Source: a virus (lineage: Duplodnaviria; Heunggongvirae; Uroviricota; Caudoviricetes). Taken from it: a stretch of 46,375 bases of DNA. The stretch's first letter is position 1. Every line of letters starts with the position of its first letter. The position numbers and the translations under genes are program-made. Positions 1,641 through 23,933 of this stretch are shown piece after piece. The notes below the pieces were generated by a model. The model ran no database searches, was not told the origin of the DNA, and was given only the letters and a program-made list of their open reading frames with translations. Where the stretch lies: the IMG/VR virus record IMGVR_UViG_2925891887_000007, one strand, 5' to 3'.

Positions 1641-4112
1641 TTAAGAATCAGCCTGACTCGGGATCAGTTTTTGCCAGATAACTGAAACGTATTTTGCCTG
1701 GTAACGGGCGTCATCAAGTGCATTATGGCGCTCACCTTCGAATGGAATAGCCGTTCTGGCATCGAAGTCTATGGCTTTCCCCAGCTCAACGATTGTGCGT
1801 ACATCGCGATCGTTGTAGTAACGCCACGGGCAGGGGATCCCCTGCCGTTCGTATGAACGGCGCAAAATCGTGTTGTCGAAGTTGGCTCCATTTCCCCAAA
1901 CCTGAACAAAAAATTCACCGGAGTTTTCGTCGATAAATTCTCGCAATTGTAACAGTGCATCATCTAACGGGATTTCATCGGTCATAATGGCAGATTGCGC
2001 TTCGCGTGATTGCTTAAGCCACCATTTAATGGTGTCCCGATCAATGACTCCGCCAGCAGTTTCCAGATCGATAGTCTTACTAAATTCCGGTCCCATATCT
2101 CCGGTTTGCGGATCGAAAAATATTGCACCTATTGAGATGATCGGGGCATCAGGATTTTTTCCCATGGTTTCAAGGTCGATCATTAGATGGTCACACGTCC
2201 TGCTGGTGGATGTGATTCCGTGATGACCGTTCACCTTAATTGGGTGATCTGCCGTCTCGCCAGTTTCATTATCGCTATTGTGATGCTGATTGCCGCCAGT
2301 GTTCTCCTTGTGTGGATGTTCAGCGCCTTCCATTTCCTCCGGATCATCTTCCTGAACTTCAACCTGATACTCTTCATCGAATGTTTCTTGGTATGTTGCG
2401 TCGCCCATCACCGCGCCACAATCAGGGCAGTTGCCGCCGCCGGTCTGACCGCAGGCGGTGCAGACTTTTTCCACTTCCTGTTGCGCTACTGGTTCAGGCT
2501 GTTTCGTTTCTGGCTCGTTTTGTAACGCATTTGGACTGTTTTGTTCCGCTTTTTGGTAGTTCCGTTCCGATTCATGCTGGTTCTGGTTCACAGAATCGCG
2601 GGTCTGGAGCCCCTTAACCCATTTCGGATCATTCGGGTCACTAATCCCTTCAACAAATTCACCACGTGATGCAGCAAGCAACTTATCGGCGTCAGGCTGG
2701 CTGATATTGGCTGCCTGCATAATTTTGTTTACTTCGTCAGCGGTAACTTTTATCGGCTCTGGTTGTTCTGAATCTTCAGCGGTATCTACATTTTGCGGTA
2801 AGCCCGTGTATGTGCCATTTTTTCGGGCAAAATATTCTTCTTTTGTGATTTCAGTGGCGCCAGCAGCCAGTGCCTTATCCAGACCAGAGAGTTTGTTTGC
2901 GCGACCGTATTTTTCTCCGTCCTTATCTGCGAAGAGGAAATAGAACGGCCCCTCACGCTCTACAGATGGTTCAGCTTCCGGCGCGGTTTCATTTTTTGGG
3001 ATATCAGATACCTCAGTTTCCACTGCATCAGTTTGTGTTTCTGATGACTGGAGAACATCAACAGTGCCCAGGTCTGTTTCTTCATTCTCAAACACGCCCT
3101 TTGTCGTCAGGTATTCGCAGATATATTTGTTCAGTGCTACGGGATCTTTGTGAATGTCGATCGGACGCTCACGGACAAGGCCAAAAATAGTTTGGCGGTC
3201 GTAGCGAAGGGCATCAGGCTGTTTGCGCATTGATGCCGAGATACGCTTCCAGTCTTCGCGGTCGTTGTCGATAACTTCTTTTTTTGCCCAGCGATGGATG
3301 CTGCCGTCAATGTTTCCGGCATCCACATCACCAGGCCAGAGAGCGTAGGCCAGTTCGTCATCCAGTGTTTTCCATGTCTGCTTGTATTCGCGATGAATGG
3401 CAGCAATGACCGGGCTGATTTTTCCTGTTGAATTTTCAGTGTACTGTTGATTGGCTCTGGCGCGGGCGAGATCAACAACAGACGTGTATTTTCCGGTTTC
3501 CTTGCGTTCACCTTCGCGACGTTTTTTCCAGATGCGCATCTCTGCCTGAATTTCGGGCCATTTAGCACCAGGAATACATTTATGCTTAACCCACCCAATG
3601 GCGTGCAACTTAAGCTCCGGATACATGGCGTTAACTTCTGGCATTTTCATCAACGCTTCAACGATATGTCCGTCGAATGTTGCCATGTCTTCCTGCAACA
3701 ATTCCTGTGCGCTAATAACCATATCAACGGTGATGTTTTCACATGTGTCGAACTTAACCATGACAGCGTTCTGTACTTCAGGGGCCAGCTTGTCAAAAGT
3801 GACGTTCATCGGATCGGATTCAGTCTCAACCGGGACAAAAGAAGCAGACTCCTCATCCCAGCGGTTTTCCTGCATATATTCAGCATCCCATGAATCGAGG
3901 GCAGGGCGGGGTATGCCAGGTTTATCCTCGCAGACAATAAATTTATAAGCGCAGTCCTGAGCAGCCGGATAATGTTCCAGGAATTGCCAGTGAAATTTTG
4001 CTCGAGCACGGCGTTCGTCGCCAGCTTCAATGGCTGTGGCTACAGCCACAGCGCCTTCTTCCCTTGTTGCCAGTTCGTCAGGAATAGCGGCGCAAATAAA
4101 GACTTTACTCAT
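1641..4112 (-). CDS. Large early protein with C-terminal DEDDh (DnaQ-like) 3'-5' exonuclease domain and a central CxxC-x-CxxC zinc ribbon
   Basis: C-terminus has DLETMG...WGNGANFD...HNALDDA exonuclease motifs; start chosen at MSKVF (GAGGT RBS), since the table start at 4148 is a TTG. Confidence 0.75.
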   Translation of the reverse strand: MSKVFICAAIPDELATREEGAVAVATAIEAGDERRARAKFHWQFLEHYPAAQDCAYKFIVCEDKPGIPRPALDSWDAEYMQENRWDEESASFVPVETESDPMNVTFDKLAPEVQNAVMVKFDTCENITVDMVISAQELLQEDMATFDGHIVEALMKMPEVNAMYPELKLHAIGWVKHKCIPGAKWPEIQAEMRIWKKRREGERKETGKYTSVVDLARARANQQYTENSTGKISPVIAAIHREYKQTWKTLDDELAYALWPGDVDAGNIDGSIHRWAKKEVIDNDREDWKRISASMRKQPDALRYDRQTIFGLVRERPIDIHKDPVALNKYICEYLTTKGVFENEETDLGTVDVLQSSETQTDAVETEVSDIPKNETAPEAEPSVEREGPFYFLFADKDGEKYGRANKLSGLDKALAAGATEITKEEYFARKNGTYTGLPQNVDTAEDSEQPEPIKVTADEVNKIMQAANISQPDADKLLAASRGEFVEGISDPNDPKWVKGLQTRDSVNQNQHESERNYQKAEQNSPNALQNEPETKQPEPVAQQEVEKVCTACGQTGGGNCPDCGAVMGDATYQETFDEEYQVEVQEDDPEEMEGAEHPHKENTGGNQHHNSDNETGETADHPIKVNGHHGITSTSRTCDHLMIDLETMGKNPDAPIISIGAIFFDPQTGDMGPEFSKTIDLETAGGVIDRDTIKWWLKQSREAQSAIMTDEIPLDDALLQLREFIDENSGEFFVQVWGNGANFDNTILRRSYERQGIPCPWRYYNDRDVRTIVELGKAIDFDARTAIPFEGERHNALDDARYQAKYVSVIWQKLIPSQADS

Positions 4113-4204
4113 TTGTTTTAACCTCATGACAGATTTAAGGATGAACAAATCCCTGCCATTGCTGGCATATAAGAATGAAACCGGATATTTATTACGGAAC
4201 TGTT

Positions 4205-15439: not shown

Positions 15440-15515
15440 GGTCCTTTAGCTCAGTGGTGAGAGCGAGCGACTCATAATCGCCAGGTCGCTGGTTCAAATC
15501 CAGCAAGGGCCACCA
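15440..15515 (+). tRNA. tRNA with CAT anticodon (Ile2/Met type)
   Basis: Cloverleaf with acceptor GGTCCTT/AAGGGCC, D-arm TAGCTCAGTGG, anticodon loop CTCATAA, T-arm GGTTCAAATCC, 3' ACCA. Confidence 0.85.
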
Positions 15516-15620: not shown

Positions 15621-15697
15621 GCGTTGTTAGCTCAGCCGGACAGAGCAATTGCCTTCTAAGCAATCGGTCACTGGTTCGAATCCAGTACAGCGCGCCA
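15621..15697 (+). tRNA. tRNA-Arg (TCT anticodon)
   Basis: Acceptor GCGTTGT/ACAGCGC, D-arm TAGCTCAGCCGG, anticodon loop CTTCTAA, T-arm GGTTCGAATCC, GCCA end. Confidence 0.85.
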
Positions 15698-16694: not shown

Positions 16695-17123
16695 ATGGGT
16701 TTTCGTAGCGCATCAATTCTTACGTTGATTATTAGTGGGATTATTATCGGGTGCACTGATGCTGTATCGACAAATTATCATGACCGTACATCATATTACT
16801 CCGATAAAGCAATAGAGACACAGTATGTGAGTTCATCTGAACGTACTTCTGATGTTAGTGAGGATATCCGTCTGTATGCCCATCAAATCAAGAGCGCCAT
16901 CGAAAAACAGTTCGGGGATGCGAGTAAGTATTCAGGAAAAGAGTGTACACTGAGAATGCATATGGCCCCGAATGGCCTTCTACTGGAGGTTAAAAGAGAA
17001 AGTGGAGACCTCGATTTATGTCGTGAAGCGATGAATGCGATAAAGAATGCTGATATACCTGCCCCCCCTTCGCCGGAAGTATATAAAGTATTTCAAAATG
17101 GGGTGCTGGATTTTAAACCCTGA
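16695..17123 (+). CDS. Lipoprotein with TolA C-terminal (domain III)-like domain
   Basis: Signal peptide plus lipobox (IIGC); C-terminal YAHQIKSAIEKQF...YSGKECTLRMHMAPNGLLLEVKRESGDLDLC...IPAPPSPEVYKVFQNGVLDFKP closely resembles remembered E. coli TolA C-terminus. Confidence 0.8.
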   Translation: MGFRSASILTLIISGIIIGCTDAVSTNYHDRTSYYSDKAIETQYVSSSERTSDVSEDIRLYAHQIKSAIEKQFGDASKYSGKECTLRMHMAPNGLLLEVKRESGDLDLCREAMNAIKNADIPAPPSPEVYKVFQNGVLDFKP

Positions 17124-17273: not shown

Positions 17274-17669
17274 GTGGGATTAAAGAAAATCGTTATGTTG
17301 ACTTTTTGGGTCGGTTTTGTTGCGGGATGCACACCTTTACACCCTTCAGATTGCCACAAAACTACTGCTACAGGTAGTTGCAGTTCAGGACGCTGGGATG
17401 ATCAGGATGAATGGGGGGCGCAAGCGCGGGGAATCAGAGCTGCAATTAATGCCAAACTTGATGAGCCGCATAACTGGAAAGGGAAAATATGCAGGTTGCA
17501 TATGGAATTCTCTCAGGATGGCACGGCGTTAAAAATATCTACCAGTAACGGTGATAAAGCCTATTGCGAAGCGATAAAGTCCGCAGCTCATAAAGCCAAA
17601 TTTCCGGCCTTCAACAATCCGAAAGTCTACAGAGATTTTCAGAAATCTGGCTTTGACATGCGAGGTTAG
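17274..17669 (+). CDS. Paralogous lipoprotein with divergent TolA-C-like domain
   Basis: GTG start with GAGGAG RBS; lipobox VAGC; WKGKICRLHMEFSQDGTALKISTSNGDKAYCEAIKSAAHKAKFPAFNNPKVYRDF. Confidence 0.75.
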   Translation: MGLKKIVMLTFWVGFVAGCTPLHPSDCHKTTATGSCSSGRWDDQDEWGAQARGIRAAINAKLDEPHNWKGKICRLHMEFSQDGTALKISTSNGDKAYCEAIKSAAHKAKFPAFNNPKVYRDFQKSGFDMRG

Positions 17670-18140: not shown

Positions 18141-18485
18141 ATGACTCAAAAATATGAACTGATTGTGAAAGGGATCCGCAATTTTGAGAATAAAGTTACG
18201 GTAACTTTAGCGTTACGGGACAAAGAACGCTTTGACGGTGAAATTTTTGACCTGGACATCTCGCTGGACCGTGTTGAAGGTGCCGCGCTGGAGTTTTATG
18301 AGGCAGCAGCCAGAAGGAGCATCAGACAGGTCTTCCTGGATGTTGCTGCCGGGTTATGTGAAGGGGATGAGCTGTCGCCGGAAAAGCGCCCCATAATTTT
18401 AGAGGCGCAGAATGTGTGGATAACCTACAAAGGAAAGCTACCGGGAAGAATTACTGGTTCTCTGAAGACTCCGCCGAAATGGTAA
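18141..18485 (+). CDS. Hypothetical protein inserted between holin and endolysin
   Basis: 114-aa ORF 4 nt after holin stop with GGGGAGAG RBS. Confidence 0.5.
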   Translation: MTQKYELIVKGIRNFENKVTVTLALRDKERFDGEIFDLDISLDRVEGAALEFYEAAARRSIRQVFLDVAAGLCEGDELSPEKRPIILEAQNVWITYKGKLPGRITGSLKTPPKW

Positions 18486-18723
18486 TTTCACCAGCATATT
18501 TTTCTTCCAGTAATACCGCCAGCCACTTGAAAGAATTTTGTTGTTGCTGGGACCATTTGGGGTTGAGTGATTCAAGCTGGAGCGATGCCAGTGTTGGTTG
18601 CATTTGTTCCTTGGGAATTGAGAATGCCAGATATGAAAATGCGACAGTAAGGGCATTTACATCATCCCGAAGCTTGGAAATGCAGTCGAGCAACTCCTGT
18701 AGAGAAATGGTGCTATTGTCCAT
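18451..18723 (-). CDS. Hypothetical antisense-oriented protein within lysis cassette
   Basis: 90-aa minus-strand ORF, ATG preceded by GAGAGGA; 3' end overlaps the plus-strand ORF by 35 nt. Confidence 0.4.
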   Translation of the reverse strand: MDNSTISLQELLDCISKLRDDVNALTVAFSYLAFSIPKEQMQPTLASLQLESLNPKWSQQQQNSFKWLAVLLEEKYAGEITISAESSENQ

Positions 18724-18828
18724 AAACAATCCTCTCTATTGTATTTAACTATTCCTTGCCTGATTCAACAGGCCGGGACAGATAAACATATCCAGGGTTC
18801 AGAAACCGATAAATCCTGATAAATATCC

Positions 18829-19371
18829 ATGAACGTAAAAATCAGATACGGCCTGTCGGCTGCCGTTCTGGCACTGATTGCCGTCCGTGCGCCTGCGCCT
18901 GATATTCTCGACCAGTTTCTGAATGAAAAAGAAGGTAACCACACAACGGCATACCGCGATGGTTCCGGCATCTGGACCATCTGTCGGGGTGCCACGGTGG
19001 TGGATGGAAAACCCGTTTTTCCCGGTATGAAACTGTCGAAGGAAAAATGCGACCAGGTTAACGCCATTGAACGGGATAAGGCGCTGGCATGGGTGGAGCG
19101 CAATATTAAAGTGCCACTGACCGAACCACAGAAAGCGGGTATAGCGTCATTTTGTCCCTATAACATTGGCCCCGGTAAGTGTTTCCCGTCGACGTTTTAT
19201 AAGCGGCTGAATGCCGATGATCGTAAGGGGGCATGCGAGGCGATTCGCTGGTGGATAAAAGATGGTGGGCGTGATTGCCGCCTGACAAAAGGGCAGAAGA
19301 ATGGCTGTTATGGGCAGGTCGAGCGGCGCGATCAGGAAAGCGCACTGGCGTGCTGGGGGCTGGAGCAATGA
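18829..19371 (+). CDS. R: SAR endolysin (T4-type lysozyme fold)
   Basis: N-terminal hydrophobic SAR segment, then lysozyme-like region (EGNHTTAYRDGSGIWTICRG). Confidence 0.9.
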   Translation: MNVKIRYGLSAAVLALIAVRAPAPDILDQFLNEKEGNHTTAYRDGSGIWTICRGATVVDGKPVFPGMKLSKEKCDQVNAIERDKALAWVERNIKVPLTEPQKAGIASFCPYNIGPGKCFPSTFYKRLNADDRKGACEAIRWWIKDGGRDCRLTKGQKNGCYGQVERRDQESALACWGLEQ

Positions 19372-19904
19372 AAATTAATCCGGATCTTATAGGCGTTGTC
19401 GTTATTGCTGGCCTTTCGGTCGCTCTCGTCAAGAGTTGCTCTCACGCCAGTAATCTTCAGAGCGATAACGACGTTCTGCGAAGTGACAACTCTATGCTGG
19501 GGCAGGTAATCGCCACCCAGGCATTCAACTTCAATCGATTCAATCAGGTTGCAGAACATGCCAACAGTCTTAACTCCCTGATCGACACCAGCACCGAAAA
19601 AACCGTAATCGAATACCGGGAGATTCTCCGCCGTGAAAAAACCTGTGATCTGCCTGTTCCTGCTGATATCGCTGGTGGGTTGCTCGAATACACGTACCGT
19701 TTACGTGCCAGCGCCATGCACACCGATACCGGCAGACCTAATGAAGCCTATGATCGTACCGCTACCACCAGCTCAATGACCTACTGCCAAGCTGTCTTGT
19801 GGATTAAGCCGCTACTGGCGTTGATAGAAAAAGGAAATAATAATTTTTCGAGTATTCGTGAAATTGATGAGTTGCGTTACAGACCATCTGAGCATGGCCA
19901 GTAA
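19368..19904 (+). CDS. Rz: i-spanin Rz
   Basis: ATGA overlap with endolysin stop; N-terminal TM segment; contains embedded Rz1 frame. Confidence 0.75.
   Translation: MKINPDLIGVVVIAGLSVALVKSCSHASNLQSDNDVLRSDNSMLGQVIATQAFNFNRFNQVAEHANSLNSLIDTSTEKTVIEYREILRREKTCDLPVPADIAGGLLEYTYRLRASAMHTDTGRPNEAYDRTATTSSMTYCQAVLWIKPLLALIEKGNNNFSSIREIDELRYRPSEHGQ
19633..19779 (+). CDS. Rz1: o-spanin Rz1 (embedded in Rz, +1 frame)
   Basis: 48 codons: VKKPVICLFLLISLVGCSNT... lipobox LVGC, proline-rich C-terminus; GTG start. Confidence 0.7.
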   Translation: MKKPVICLFLLISLVGCSNTRTVYVPAPCTPIPADLMKPMIVPLPPAQ

Positions 19905-20072
19905 GGTTGCAGGAAATTTAAAATCTGGCGATGAAATTTAATATTAGAAATTCATTGCCTAGTGAGATTAATAATGGGCATCCCTTTGTGACGATAAGCT
20001 TTAACACATTCACAAAGGGATATTTAATATAGGGTGGTTAATTCCCACTTGCTGTGGTGTTTAGGGGGTAAT

Positions 20073-20765
20073 TCAAATCTTATCTAACTCATTATAGGCT
20101 TCGATAATAAAAATTCTGATTTTAATAAGGCATGATTCAATGAAAGGAATTACTTCATGGTCATTCCCATGGAATCTTATTTTTTTCTCTTCGGTAATGA
20201 CTATGTTTAAAGGTACACCATTACCACTTCTTTGTAATTTCCCATTTTCGAAAGTAAAGTCTTCTAATTTTTTGCCATTGATGTGGTTGTTTTTAAAGAG
20301 AATTTTTGCTGAGCTTCCTGCTGTGATTAAACCAAAACCATCTACGCTCACACTTAGGTCTTTAACAGAACTCTCTTCTCTTAAGGGGATTGGTTGTCTG
20401 TGCTTTACTTCATTAGTGAGATTACACATCATTTCCAACCAAGATTCGCCAGTGTGATAATCCTGTATAGAAGTAAAAATTTTATATAATGGAGAAGATG
20501 ATGGTGGGTTTATTTTTAGCGTCTTTGAGAAAAATTTATCAATAAACTCTTTTTTTCCGTAAGGGAAATATATTTTGGGGCGCTCATCATTACTGCGTGG
20601 AGAAATATATTTATCATAGGTATCATTAGCGAGATACTCTAAGGAACTTCGTAAGTTTTCCAAAATAGCTTTGACTTTTACAGGCTTGATATGCTGTGTC
20701 TGTCTCATTATGCCAAGACTTTCTTCAACTTCTTGCAATAAGTCCAACGAGCCTTCTCTAGACAT
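20073..20765 (-). CDS. Hypothetical 230-aa protein, low-GC cargo between lysis genes and cos
   Basis: Minus-strand ORF in AT-rich DNA flanked by long AT-rich intergenic regions. Confidence 0.65.
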   Translation of the reverse strand: MSREGSLDLLQEVEESLGIMRQTQHIKPVKVKAILENLRSSLEYLANDTYDKYISPRSNDERPKIYFPYGKKEFIDKFFSKTLKINPPSSSPLYKIFTSIQDYHTGESWLEMMCNLTNEVKHRQPIPLREESSVKDLSVSVDGFGLITAGSSAKILFKNNHINGKKLEDFTFENGKLQRSGNGVPLNIVITEEKKIRFHGNDHEVIPFIESCLIKIRIFIIEAYNELDKI

Positions 20766-21150
20766 ACAGGTAATTCTCCTTTATGAATTTTCAACATGTT
20801 ATAACTAATAATATATTTATCATATAACTGTATGAATAAATTGTGAGATTAGTAATGCAAGTTTCTATCCATAGTGTTCTCTAAGTACCCGCTTCCATCA
20901 TGTTGTTACGGACGGTATGGCTAAAACAAAGCACCTGAAGTTAAACGTTCTGAACTTTATGCTCGTTGAGCATATGAATTATCTGTAACCCGATGCGCTG
21001 GTTGTGGTTCACATTGATGGTCGTAATCAGCAGCGGTGGTGCCTGATGGCATGCAACTTCTTACTTATAAAACTTCGTATGGAATTGTTGCCATAACGAG
21101 CCCAGCTTAGCAGTTTTTAATGGGTCCTCCCGGCAGTGTGTCCTGCCACG

Positions 21151-21167
21151 GGGCGGGAGCGTCGCGG
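21151..21167. other. Candidate cos site (cosN-like)
   Basis: GGGCGGGAGCGTCGCGG resembles lambda GGGCGGCGACCTCGCGG; about 170 bp upstream of small terminase gene. Confidence 0.35.
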
Positions 21168-21336
21168 AAAAAGGCTAGTTTTTGAAATTTCATTCGTCAT
21201 CACCACTACTTTAATATATTGATATTACAGTGGTTTTATTTTTATGGTGTCGATTTTGATTGTTTTTTGTTCATCACTAACACCGTTTGCCTAAAGTTGT
21301 TCGCAAGATGCATGTTTAAAACATTCTGGAGCGGGT

Positions 21337-21831
21337 ATGGATCGAGAGTTGAAAAATCTGACGCTGAATATCAGTCAACTGGCGGCACTGTCAGGTGTAC
21401 ATCGCCAGACTGCTGCGGCAAGGCTGCAAAATCTACCCGTTGCAGGGGGGCATGAAAGCAACCTCAAGCTTTATCGGGTGGTTGATATTGTGTCGGCATT
21501 TCTGGCATTGCCACCGCCGGTTGCAGAAGGCGAAATGGACGCGCATGAGCGCAAAGCCTGGTATCAGTCTGAACGTGAGCGTCTTAAGTTCGAACAGGAA
21601 ACGGCACAACTCATTCCGGCCAGTGATGTCAGACGGGAGTTTGCCATCTGGGCAAAAGCGGTCGTGCAGGTGCTGGAGACATTACCGGATATTCTGGAAC
21701 GTGACTGCGGTCTGCAGCCTGCCGCTGTGAGCCGTGTTCAGTCCATTATTGATGATCTGCGCGATCAGATAGCCCTGCGGGTGACTGAAGCAGGTGCGGA
21801 TGATGAGGAGGAATTACAGCAGGAGGAGTAA
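21337..21831 (+). CDS. nu1: Terminase small subunit (Nu1-like)
   Basis: 164 aa with N-terminal HTH-like region and acidic C-terminus; immediately upstream of large terminase. Confidence 0.8.
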   Translation: MDRELKNLTLNISQLAALSGVHRQTAAARLQNLPVAGGHESNLKLYRVVDIVSAFLALPPPVAEGEMDAHERKAWYQSERERLKFEQETAQLIPASDVRREFAIWAKAVVQVLETLPDILERDCGLQPAAVSRVQSIIDDLRDQIALRVTEAGADDEEELQQEE

Positions 21832-23933
21832 TGCTGAATCAGGAAACCGCAAAGGCAGCACGAACCGATTCAGGTTATATCCTTCGCGCACCGAGACGAA
21901 TGCGGGTTGCTGATGCCGTTGCTCAGTATATGCGGGTGCCCATGGGGGCAGGGAACTCAGTCCCGTGGGATCCGCTGGTGGCACCGTATGTTATTGAGCC
22001 GATGAACTGCCTGGCCTCGCGTGAATACGACGCAGTGATATTTGTTGGTCCGGCACGAACCGGCAAGACTATCGGCCTGATTGACGGCTGGGTGATTTAC
22101 AACGTGATTTGCGATCCTGCGGATATGCTGATCATTCAGATGACGGAGGAAAAAGCCCGCGAACACTCCAAAAAACGACTTGCCAGAACGTTTCGCGTCA
22201 GCCCGGAAGTGGTCAGTCGCCTGAGTCCGAACAAAAATGACAACAACGTTTATGACAGAACATTCCTTGCTGGCAACTACCTGAAAATCGGCTGGCCGTC
22301 AGTCAATATCATGTCCTCATCAGATTATAAATGCGTGGCGCTGACGGATTATGACCGTTTTCCGGAAGATATTGATGGCGAGGGGGATGCCTTCTCTCTT
22401 GCCTCAAAACGTACCACCACATTTATGTCCAGTGGTATGACGCTGGTGGAGAGTTCCCCCGGTAGGGATGTGAAGGATGTGAAATGGCGAAGGACTTCAC
22501 CGCATGAGGCTCCACCAACCACGGGGATACTGTCGCTCTATAACCGTGGCGATCGCCGTCGCTGGTACTGGCCCTGTCCACACTGTGGTGAGTATTTTCA
22601 GCCCTGCGGCGATGTGGTTGCTGGTTTCCGTGATATTGCCGATCCCGTGCTGGCAAGTGAGGCGGCTTATATTCAGTGTCCTTCCTGTTCAGGACGGATT
22701 ATGCCTGAACAAAAACGTGAGCTGAACGGACGTGGGGTCTGGTTGCGGGATGGTGAATCCATCAATGCGGATGGCAGTCGTTATGGTGATCCCCGACGCT
22801 CACGTATTGCGTCATTCTGGATGGAGGGTCCGGCAGCTGCTTACCAGACACTCTCGCAACTCGTTTACAAACTGCTTACTGCAGAACAGGAATACGAGAC
22901 AACCGGAAGTGAAGAAACACTCAAGACGGTTATCAATACCGACTGGGGATTACCTTATCTTCCCCGCGCCAGCATGGAGCAACGAAAAAGTGAACTGCTT
23001 GAGCAGCGGGCAGAGCCAGTTCCTTCCCGCAGTGTGCCGGATGGCGTTAATTTCCTTGTGGCGACAGTGGATGTGCAGGCGGGACGTCATCGCCGTTTTG
23101 TGGTTCAGGTAACGGGCTATGGCAGCCGTGGCGAACGCTGGATTATTGATCGTTACAACATCACGCAGTCATTGCGCGGTGACAGCGACGGGGAGAGCCA
23201 GCGAATTGATCCGGCCAGCTATCCGGAAGACTGGGATGTCCTGCTGACGGATGTTTTTCATAAAAGCTGGCCGCTGGCCTCCGATCCTTCTCAACAAATG
23301 CGACTGATGGCAATGGCGGTGGACTCCGGCGGTGAAGACGGGGTCACTGATAATGCCTATAAATTCTGGCGTCGTTGCCGTCGTGATGGCCTTGGTAAAC
23401 GTATTTACCTGTTTAAGGGCGACAGCATCCGGCGCGCAAAACTGATCACCCGTACATTCCCTGATAACACCGGACGAACGGGCCGACGGGCGCAGGCCGC
23501 AGGTGATGTGCCGCTCTGGCTTCTTCAGACGGATGCACTGAAAGACCGGGTGAATAACGCGTTATGGCGTGACTCGCCAGGTCCCGGCTATGTGCATTTC
23601 CCTGACTGGCTGGGGAGCTGGTTTTACGACGAACTGACGTATGAAGAGCGGAGCAGTGACGGGAAATGGAGTAAGCCGGGTCGCGGTGCCAACGAAGCTT
23701 TTGACCTGATGGTGTATGCCGAGGCTCTGGTCATTCTGCATGGATACGAAAAGATCCGCTGGCCGGATGCACCGGAGTGGGCGAGCCGGGAAACCTGGCT
23801 GGAGTGTGTCCCGGACAGTATCGAACCGTCACCCTCACCGGAACCGGTATCCACGCCTGTTAAAAAACAAAAACGGAAGAAAACAGTAACTGACGATGTT
23901 AACCCCTGGCTGACTTCCGGAGGATGGTTATGA
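21831..23933 (+). CDS. A: Terminase large subunit (lambda A-like)
   Basis: 700 aa; Walker A-like VGPARTGKT; CPHCGEYFQ zinc motif as in lambda gpA. Confidence 0.9.
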   Translation: MLNQETAKAARTDSGYILRAPRRMRVADAVAQYMRVPMGAGNSVPWDPLVAPYVIEPMNCLASREYDAVIFVGPARTGKTIGLIDGWVIYNVICDPADMLIIQMTEEKAREHSKKRLARTFRVSPEVVSRLSPNKNDNNVYDRTFLAGNYLKIGWPSVNIMSSSDYKCVALTDYDRFPEDIDGEGDAFSLASKRTTTFMSSGMTLVESSPGRDVKDVKWRRTSPHEAPPTTGILSLYNRGDRRRWYWPCPHCGEYFQPCGDVVAGFRDIADPVLASEAAYIQCPSCSGRIMPEQKRELNGRGVWLRDGESINADGSRYGDPRRSRIASFWMEGPAAAYQTLSQLVYKLLTAEQEYETTGSEETLKTVINTDWGLPYLPRASMEQRKSELLEQRAEPVPSRSVPDGVNFLVATVDVQAGRHRRFVVQVTGYGSRGERWIIDRYNITQSLRGDSDGESQRIDPASYPEDWDVLLTDVFHKSWPLASDPSQQMRLMAMAVDSGGEDGVTDNAYKFWRRCRRDGLGKRIYLFKGDSIRRAKLITRTFPDNTGRTGRRAQAAGDVPLWLLQTDALKDRVNNALWRDSPGPGYVHFPDWLGSWFYDELTYEERSSDGKWSKPGRGANEAFDLMVYAEALVILHGYEKIRWPDAPEWASRETWLECVPDSIEPSPSPEPVSTPVKKQKRKKTVTDDVNPWLTSGGWL

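Follow-up and report, generated by a model that had tools for sequence, protein, structure and literature searches.

The window analysed here is the whole 46,375-nucleotide stretch of the IMG/VR virus record IMGVR_UViG_2925891887_000007 (Caudoviricetes), and our subject is one gene within it, at 20073–20765 on the minus strand, referred to below as the cargo gene. This open reading frame (ORF) begins with ATG, spans 230 amino acids (aa) and encodes a 26.5-kDa cytoplasmic protein, a candidate solo HEPN-like effector that RefSeq lists as a 'hypothetical protein' (WP_000085746.1). On its left lies a complete plus-strand lysis cassette, with holin, DUF1327/YdfR, lysozyme (18829–19371) and Rz/Rz1 genes. 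The Rz-type i-spanin gene (19368–19904, plus strand), in which an Rz1 lipoprotein gene is embedded (19633–19779, plus strand; lipobox LVGC), forms the left boundary of the slot. Genes for the small (DUF1441; 21337–21831) and large (21831–23933) terminase subunits, both on the plus strand, form the right boundary. Transcription of the cargo ORF runs counter to that of the holin, lysozyme, Rz/Rz1 and terminase genes.

The cohesive-end site cosN (GGGCGGGAGCGT; 21151–21162, plus strand) lies 386 bp from the cargo start codon. We placed cosN there from the first base of several phage genome records; those of cdtI and Tritos start at the base matching window position 21151, and that of mEp460_4F5 starts at 21146. 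The sequence resembles that of lambda cos. A preliminary description of this stretch, made from the sequence alone, had put the gene between the lysis cassette and cos, which is literally correct.

GC content falls to 0.33–0.39 over ∼19750–20950, compared to 0.48–0.57 in the flanking lysis and terminase genes. For the cargo ORF itself, GC is 33.9% and GC at third codon positions (GC3) is 30.7%, while GC3 of the lysozyme, TerS and TerL genes is 52–57%. Based on the GC profile and composition, we define a low-GC (35%) cargo insert at 19905–21121, running from the Rz stop codon to the conserved cos–terminase module. Its right-hand limit is a homology breakpoint at 21122, with matches to phage DNA starting at 21122–21151. 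Non-coding DNA flanks the ORF on both sides, 168 bp downstream (19905–20072) and 356 bp upstream to the breakpoint. Coordinates, GC content and strand all agree with the earlier account of an AT-rich ORF, antisense to the late operon and set in AT-rich non-coding DNA.

Chance does not account for the cargo ORF. Given the base composition of the insert, the probability of 230 consecutive sense codons is ∼3e-8; when the 1,217-bp insert was shuffled 2,000 times, the longest open frame was 171 codons, compared with 235 codons observed. Both frame and length are kept in homologues ranging from 96% down to ∼25% identity.

Rz and the cargo gene converge on a 168-bp spacer, which contains an inverted repeat at 19979–20022, predicted to form a hairpin with a perfect stem of 12–13 bp. 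It is not a canonical intrinsic terminator, because it has no U-tract. A second hairpin (19927–19960), likewise with no U-tract, lies back to back with the first. Fold z-scores for these hairpins are only –1.7 to –1.8. The pair may serve as an insulator or processing site between the convergent transcripts. Rfam recognised no RNA family in the flanks of the cargo gene, and on this result and the weak z-scores we rejected an RNA antitoxin or regulatory RNA in these flanks.

The cos-adjacent slot and the cargo family

We compared the region by megablast with 5,426 complete Escherichia coli genomes. The cos–terminase module is common to ∼2,200 of them and shows a sharp left breakpoint at 21122, 29 bp before cosN. 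The cargo region, in turn, is present in only ∼97 genomes, 52 of which have both flanks of this window. Other prophages with the same packaging module fill the slot differently: in three of them (L012–L014) it is a spacer of ∼460 bp with a 50-aa ORF, and in another (L011) it holds a gene for a DUF6979 protein plus a small ORF on the opposite strand. In Gifsy-1 (L031 29769–30170), the same Rz–TerS slot carries STM2610 on the opposite strand, encoding a secreted protein of 133 aa with a signal peptide, which shows that Salmonella phages, too, have unrelated cargo here. None of the sequenced phages in a 50,697-record collection encodes the cargo protein. The GC trough is present at the Enterobacter copy as well.

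Two further loci illustrate how the slot behaves. In one E. coli genome (H52; NZ_AP042510.1 1800037–1801927), lysozyme, Rz, cargo and cos are matched (window 19300–21191) and the terminase gene is not. Cargo and cos are thus joined to another terminase, and it follows that the cargo–cos segment recombines as a unit. In Enterobacter prophages, the lysis–packaging slot also contains a minus-strand gene (L002 4455–5912), whose 485-aa product is matched by neither Pfam nor PADLOC, and ∼1.3 kb lacking any ORF of at least 100 aa (L002 6690–8001), so the slot can hold several cargo items.

All considered, the cargo gene is almost certainly horizontally acquired prophage cargo in a cos-adjacent variable slot. 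The earlier proposal that it is a moron is borne out by its foreign composition, its absence from most prophages with the same cos–terminase module, and its occurrence in the same antisense slot in unrelated phage types.

The family to which the protein belongs is conserved and widespread. A word-indexed search returned 74 homologues, nearly all of 227–234 aa. Those with 46–96% identity come from Escherichia, Enterobacter, Klebsiella, Cronobacter, Citrobacter, Atlantibacter, Raoultella and Superficieibacter, and those with ∼30% identity from Vibrio and metagenomes. An exhaustive phmmer search of 1.84 billion representatives gave 283 clusters (50% identity level) at E ≤ 1e-3, nearly all of 220–250 aa and matched over one stretch. 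As judged from source names and loci, these clusters span Proteobacteria, Bacillota, Actinomycetota and Chloroflexota. A profile search added members from Chloroflexota and Thermoleophilia and no match with a Pfam label. In PHROGs, the only match of the cargo protein, over its full length, is phrog_13652, a family of unknown function. Pfam, NCBIfam and PADLOC v2 gave no match, in keeping with the initial impression that the protein has no recognisable motif.

Slot and orientation are conserved along with the protein. In Enterobacter, Cronobacter, Citrobacter and Raoultella genomes (50–70% identity), the gene lies between a spanin or endolysin gene and an HNH–Terminase_4–TerL module, always on the opposite strand. 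This packaging module is unrelated to the DUF1441/lambda-type terminase of our window. We also surveyed 36 viral contigs of IMG/VR that carry relatives, in which ORFs were labelled according to BLASTP matches with the lysis and packaging proteins of Pfam-labelled loci. The order packaging–gene (antisense)–lysis was seen in 22/22 contigs with both flanks labelled. Nine more, which are cut off at one side or have a label on one flank only, fit the same order, and in contig L060 the gene lies between Q and holin, again antisense. The 36 contigs stand for fewer independent lineages, since many come from E. coli prophages that hardly differ from one another; by identity, the contigs fall into about five or six classes, which differ in the types of genes at their flanks.

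More distant members occupy other positions. One directly follows the lysis cassette of a myovirus-type prophage, and another follows a GH108 endolysin gene. In a P2-like phage (L063), a member with 32% identity and intact signature motifs is flanked by gpQ (portal) and gpA (replication). Bacillus pseudomycoides plasmids carry a 32%-identical copy. In two different neighbourhoods of Neisseriales-type chromosomes (L005 6001–8264, L022 6001–8273), the stop codon of the gene overlaps by 4 nt the start of a gene for a YejF-like ATPase with two ABC_tran domains, and an AMP-binding (acyl-CoA-ligase-like) gene lies upstream and a thioredoxin gene after the ATPase gene. The 515-aa product of the Neisseriales neighbour matches AAA_21, AriA and AbiLi models and was considered as a defence-ATPase partner. 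We rejected it because it is a YejF-like transporter ATPase (ABC_tran plus oligo_HPY) adjoining permease genes. In Thermoleophilia (L027 6001–7560, L028 472–2031), the homologue is followed by genes for a SEC-C-motif protein of 263–277 aa and then a protein of 195–210 aa without a Pfam family, an arrangement that may be a lineage-specific three-gene unit. In Chloroflexota, the gene stands alone, with ftsK on one side and uvrB on the other. The Enterobacteriaceae prophages, the myovirus-type prophage, the Bacillus plasmid and the Neisseriales, Thermoleophilia and Chloroflexota loci have no conserved partner gene in common.

Predicted fold and conserved residues

AlphaFold2, run on a 43-sequence alignment, yields a soluble globular model (pLDDT 89.9, pTM 0.75). 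Helices are predicted at residues 3–23, 28–53, 72–82, 92–99, 102–105 and 109–122, followed by a β-rich part (128–198) and a last helix (205–227). The protein has no signal peptide, lipobox or transmembrane segment and a pI of 7.0, and its sole hydrophobic stretch is the amphipathic C-terminal helix of the bundle. The best structural matches of the model (scores in parentheses) are the HEPN toxin 8xdj (9.2), LAS1L (8.6), LsoA (8.4), HI0074 (8.3), the HepT structure 7ae2 (8.2) and 5yep (8.0). Mapped on the HEPN fold, h1 corresponds to residues 3–23, h2 to 28–53, h3 to 109–122 and h4 to 205–227. Residues 54–108 form an insert between h2 and h3, and inserts at this point are characteristic of the fold (PMC3710099). 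The predicted fold is HEPN-like, and we regard an HEPN-type fold as probable.

Residue conservation was counted over 104 diverse members, with positions given in query numbering. Helix 2 (codons at 20607–20684, minus strand) carries K32 (95/104), E36 (91), R39 (100), S40 (97), L42 (104), an acidic residue at 43 (D or E; 104), Y44 (100) and D48 (88). Other near-invariant positions are Q101 (103/104), W109, C114 and the loop Y66-F67-P68-Y69. Helix 3 (residues 109–122; codons at 20400–20441, minus strand) ends in T117-N118-x-x-K121-H122, a putative active site in which N118 is found in 99/104 members, K121 in 103/104 and H122 in all 104. In HEPN proteins, the Rx4-6H motif closes helix 3 or opens the h3–h4 loop, and R is usually followed by N, D or H (PMC3710099). 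The TNxxKH motif of the cargo family closes helix 3 of the model, the place of the HEPN motif, with N118 in the post-R position.

In a set of 34 enterobacterial sequences, conservation peaks in the core helices, with entropies of 0.61 bits for h2 and 0.56 bits, the lowest value, for h3. The β-rich insert of some 75 residues (codons at 20172–20384, minus strand) is the most variable part (1.74 bits; 53% mean identity to the query). In the model it occupies the h3–h4 loop, directly after H122. Because this variable module is joined to a fixed core next to the putative active site, it may well act as a sensor or specificity domain. Fast evolution beside a fixed core would be expected in an arms race.

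A Foldseek search of BFVD returned one significant match, A0A514TZW7, an unnamed viral protein of 275 aa (E 1.5e-4; TM 0.50 over 276 columns). This may be a structurally related viral protein that lies outside the sequence family.

Candidate function and competing explanations

The explanation that we tentatively favour, and to which we give a little less than an even chance, is that the cargo gene encodes a lysogen-expressed, single-protein abortive-infection effector, an HEPN-like RNase of the HepS/Tha type. A role in defence, taken by itself, is probable; catalytic RNase activity is possible rather than probable. In the scheme that we infer, the gene would be expressed in the lysogen from a promoter of its own, and the protein would stay inactive until it recognised, probably via the variable β domain, some component of a superinfecting phage. 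Recognition would switch on a metal-independent RNase activity based on H122, with K121 and/or R39 standing in for the absent arginine of the canonical motif. The infection would then be aborted by cleavage of tRNA, mRNA or rRNA. Upon induction of the resident prophage, the gene would be silenced, because it is antisense to Q-antiterminated late transcription, and self-targeting would thereby be limited.

Several known systems resemble this arrangement in part. HepS, the 'HEPN solo' Abi protein of Gifsy-1 (PMC13043305), is likewise a single small (<250 aa) prophage protein with an HEPN-type core and no conserved partner, encoded in an accessory slot of a lambdoid prophage. Its homologues range from Bacillaceae to Enterobacteriaceae (PMC13043305), and we take it as the working model of how a solo HEPN protein can both sense the phage and kill the cell. 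HepS has a canonical RX4-6H motif (R100–H105), whereas the cargo protein lacks this motif. We searched the LT2 Gifsy-1 record for HepS by its R100/H105 signature and did not find it, and hence no direct comparison is given. Tha, a tail-activated protein of S. aureus prophages (PMC11087260), is 301 aa long, with a non-HEPN N-terminal part and a C-terminal HEPN domain bearing the canonical motif RNSIMH. By contrast, the cargo protein has an extra domain inside the HEPN core and the motif TNxxKH. Tha also has HHpred support and a cognate inhibitor, Ith, while no inhibitor gene is evident for the cargo protein.

The closest precedent for the missing arginine is the Parep1/8 family of HEPN proteins, in which H is kept, R is absent and other basic residues are conserved (PMC3710099). 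Parep1/8 proteins share with the cargo protein a four-helix core, an h2–h3 insert, a histidine ending helix 3 and possible basic compensation for the absent arginine. They differ in being archaeal and MNT-associated, and no sequence similarity of the cargo protein to any HEPN profile was detected. Type VII HepT and RnlA/LsoA are the best structural counterparts of the model, and RnlA and LsoA are E. coli anti-phage toxins. These proteins have canonical motifs and adjacent antitoxins (MntA, RnlB and LsoB, respectively), whereas the cargo gene has no partner.

Location also points to defence. Like lambda bor, the classic morons and the cargos of the P2 (old/tin) and P4 hotspots, the gene is an addition to the conserved late-region modules between which it lies: it deviates in composition, runs on the opposite strand, adjoins cos and is replaced by other cargo in relatives. 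The cos-proximal gpQ–gpA locus of P2 (old, tin) is an experimentally demonstrated anti-phage hotspot, and the P2 and P4 hotspots both adjoin cos (Rousset et al., PMC9122126). At the P4 hotspot, 6/8 randomly chosen cargos of unknown function proved protective (PMC13586616). The P2 gpA–gpQ hotspot itself holds a member of the cargo family, that of L063. This member and the HEPN-like predicted fold strengthen the earlier suggestion of an exclusion or abortive-infection gene; the accompanying idea of a Bor-like role found no support. In the literature that we searched, the lambdoid Rz–cos slot was not found described as a defence hotspot.

Putative expression signals lie upstream of the gene. A Shine–Dalgarno-like AAGGAG lies 10 nt upstream of the ATG (20776–20781, minus strand), and a purine-rich stretch occupies this position in all aligned homologous loci. 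A putative promoter region is predicted at 20794–20847 (minus strand). It includes a –10-like TATAAC within TAGnTATAAnATGT, an element ∼30 nt upstream of the ATG that is common to the E. coli, Enterobacter and Cronobacter loci, and two sigma-70-like hexamer pairs, forming minus-strand sites at 20847–20808.

A number of observations weigh against this explanation. The Rx4-6H motif is only partially represented (x-N-x-x-K-H): the defining arginine is absent in 104/104 members, with position 117 occupied by T (74), V (11), N (10), A (3), S (3) or D (1), and position 115, the Rx6H option, is not conserved. Helix 2 of HEPN proteins usually bears a conserved acidic residue in the pattern Ex3[KR] (PMC3710099); here it carries E36, R39 and D/E43, with E-x2-R spacing. 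Pfam and PADLOC, applied to the 104 diverse members, detected no HEPN family and nothing consistent. Alignment of the family profile to E. coli RnlA by hhalign gave a probability of 0.14%. Profile searches of the PDB, full-length and core-only, found no HEPN chain, only apolipoprotein and coiled-coil noise. Nothing significant was found by Foldseek against the PDB, the best HEPN toxin having E ∼0.7 and probability ∼0.5. The residues K32, E36, R39, S40, Y44, Q101, N118, K121 and H122 appear to cluster as a putative active site, as judged from helical periodicity only. Because the arginine is absent, the helix-2 spacing is off, sequence-level support is nil and the clustering comes from periodicity, we call the protein HEPN-like with a variant motif rather than a member of an established HEPN family.

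Other points on the same side concern expression, context and literature. Sigma-70-like sites in the region number 8, versus 5.7 ± 2.3 expected from shuffles, and are hence not above chance. An own promoter is a prediction suggested by the –10-like element, which is partly conserved in three genera. Some homologues reside on chromosomes in apparently housekeeping contexts (Neisseriales ABC ATPase; Chloroflexota ftsK–uvrB), and that in Neisseriales, apparently stable, co-transcribed and non-phage, is not explained by a defence role. Neither of two RefSeq accessions of the family and none of its signature peptides were found in the searchable text of the literature. The signature peptides were also not found in the supplements of DefensePredictor and of Rousset 2022, files of which some were incomplete, so this absence is no proof.

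The strongest competitor, which we consider unlikely, holds that the protein is an HEPN-like or generic helical bundle and not a nuclease, either a binder that sequesters a phage protein or RNA (in exclusion or regulation) or an enzyme performing other chemistry on the K/R/Y/Q/N/K/H cluster. However, H122 (104/104), K121, N118, R39 and Q101 are invariant across members with pairwise identity of ∼25%, as is typical of a catalytic or ligand site, and the histidine falls at the exact HEPN catalytic position in the model. Moreover, Arg-less HEPN families with compensating basic residues have already been described (PMC3710099).

A toxin or addiction module, stabilising the prophage or answering stress with no sensing of phage, would need some control, either antisense RNA from late or read-through transcription or a small antitoxin that has escaped recognition. 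We regard this as improbable. No conserved antitoxin gene is adjacent, and there is no room for one, because the spacers at other loci are as short as 110 bp upstream (Cronobacter) and 6 bp downstream (Citrobacter). The flanking non-coding DNA is alignable only in part among loci, and the flanks are blank in Rfam.

The strong linkage to the lysis–packaging junction in many phages could instead indicate a gene that serves the phage itself, in the lytic cycle or early in infection, for instance by countering defences or by assisting packaging or lysis. Accessory regions of phages hold counter-defence genes too. Yet the gene is antisense to the late operon in 31/31 labelled lysis–packaging contexts, as well as in the Q–holin variant, and is therefore not part of the late transcript. 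Most related prophages do without it, other members are found in non-phage chromosomal and plasmid contexts, and one sits at the P2 old/tin hotspot, which holds defences. Thus, a phage-benefit gene seems to us a poor fit.

Lambda bor has the same position and opposite-strand orientation, and secreted STM2610 fills the same slot in Gifsy-1, but Bor is an outer-membrane lipoprotein and the cargo protein is cytoplasmic, with no signal peptide, lipobox or transmembrane segment, neutral pI and a soluble globular predicted structure, making an envelope factor of lysogenic conversion (for serum resistance, adhesion or superinfection exclusion at the membrane) very improbable and leaving the earlier pointer to Bor-like serum resistance unsupported.

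Returning to the abortive-infection effector, its kind would not be new, since solo prophage HEPN defences are already known. What would set it apart are variant features: an N-x-x-K-H site free of arginine, an extra domain placed at the active site and a slot beside cos in lambdoid prophages. A bolder version, which we think rather doubtful, is that the gene is the founding member of an undescribed, widespread single-protein immune family, with an HEPN scaffold whose active site has lost the canonical arginine and is composed of N-x-x-K-H and the helix-2 arginine, a hypervariable internal β sensor at that site, an Rz–cos hotspot akin to those of P2 and P4, and an off-switch provided by late transcription. 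If the effector proposal is true, prophage immunity gains a new solo effector family that is invisible to Pfam, NCBIfam and PADLOC. The HEPN RNase scaffold would then work without its signature arginine, widening the criteria by which HEPN nucleases are recognised, and a sensor domain next to the catalytic histidine would offer a compact model of how phage recognition is coupled to activation. Defence genes could then be sought at the lambdoid Rz–cos junction, as they are at the hotspots next to cos in P2 and P4. Should the protein prove non-catalytic or non-defensive, the family would still be a well-defined and easily testable orphan with a confident structural model.

Other genes of the prophage

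Two tRNA genes lie just downstream of Q on the plus strand (15440–15515 and 15621–15697), one with a CAT anticodon and the other tRNA-Arg(TCT). The CAT tRNA is assigned as Met by ARAGORN and as Ile in the RefSeq annotation of a homologous locus. Should the cargo protein turn out to act as an anticodon nuclease, these genes would be relevant.

Between the tRNA genes and holin, tandem plus-strand genes (16695–17123 and 17274–17669) encode proteins with a TolA C-terminal domain (Pfam TolA; E 2e-23 and 4e-14, respectively), the second of which has a lipoprotein-like N-terminus. We take this pair to be further morons of the same prophage; as TolA mimics, the proteins could interfere with colicins or with the entry of filamentous phages.

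A spacer between the DUF1327/YdfR and lysozyme genes (18486–18828) overlaps a 92-aa minus-strand ORF (18451–18729). At the corresponding position in E. coli ECC-1470 (L001 3349–4701), there is an ISEc52 insertion and a pseudogene fragment. In the early region, a minus-strand gene (1641–4148) encodes an 835-aa protein with a C-terminal Rv2179c-like 3′–5′ exoribonuclease domain (E 2.5e-67), preceded by ∼650 N-terminal residues with no Pfam match.

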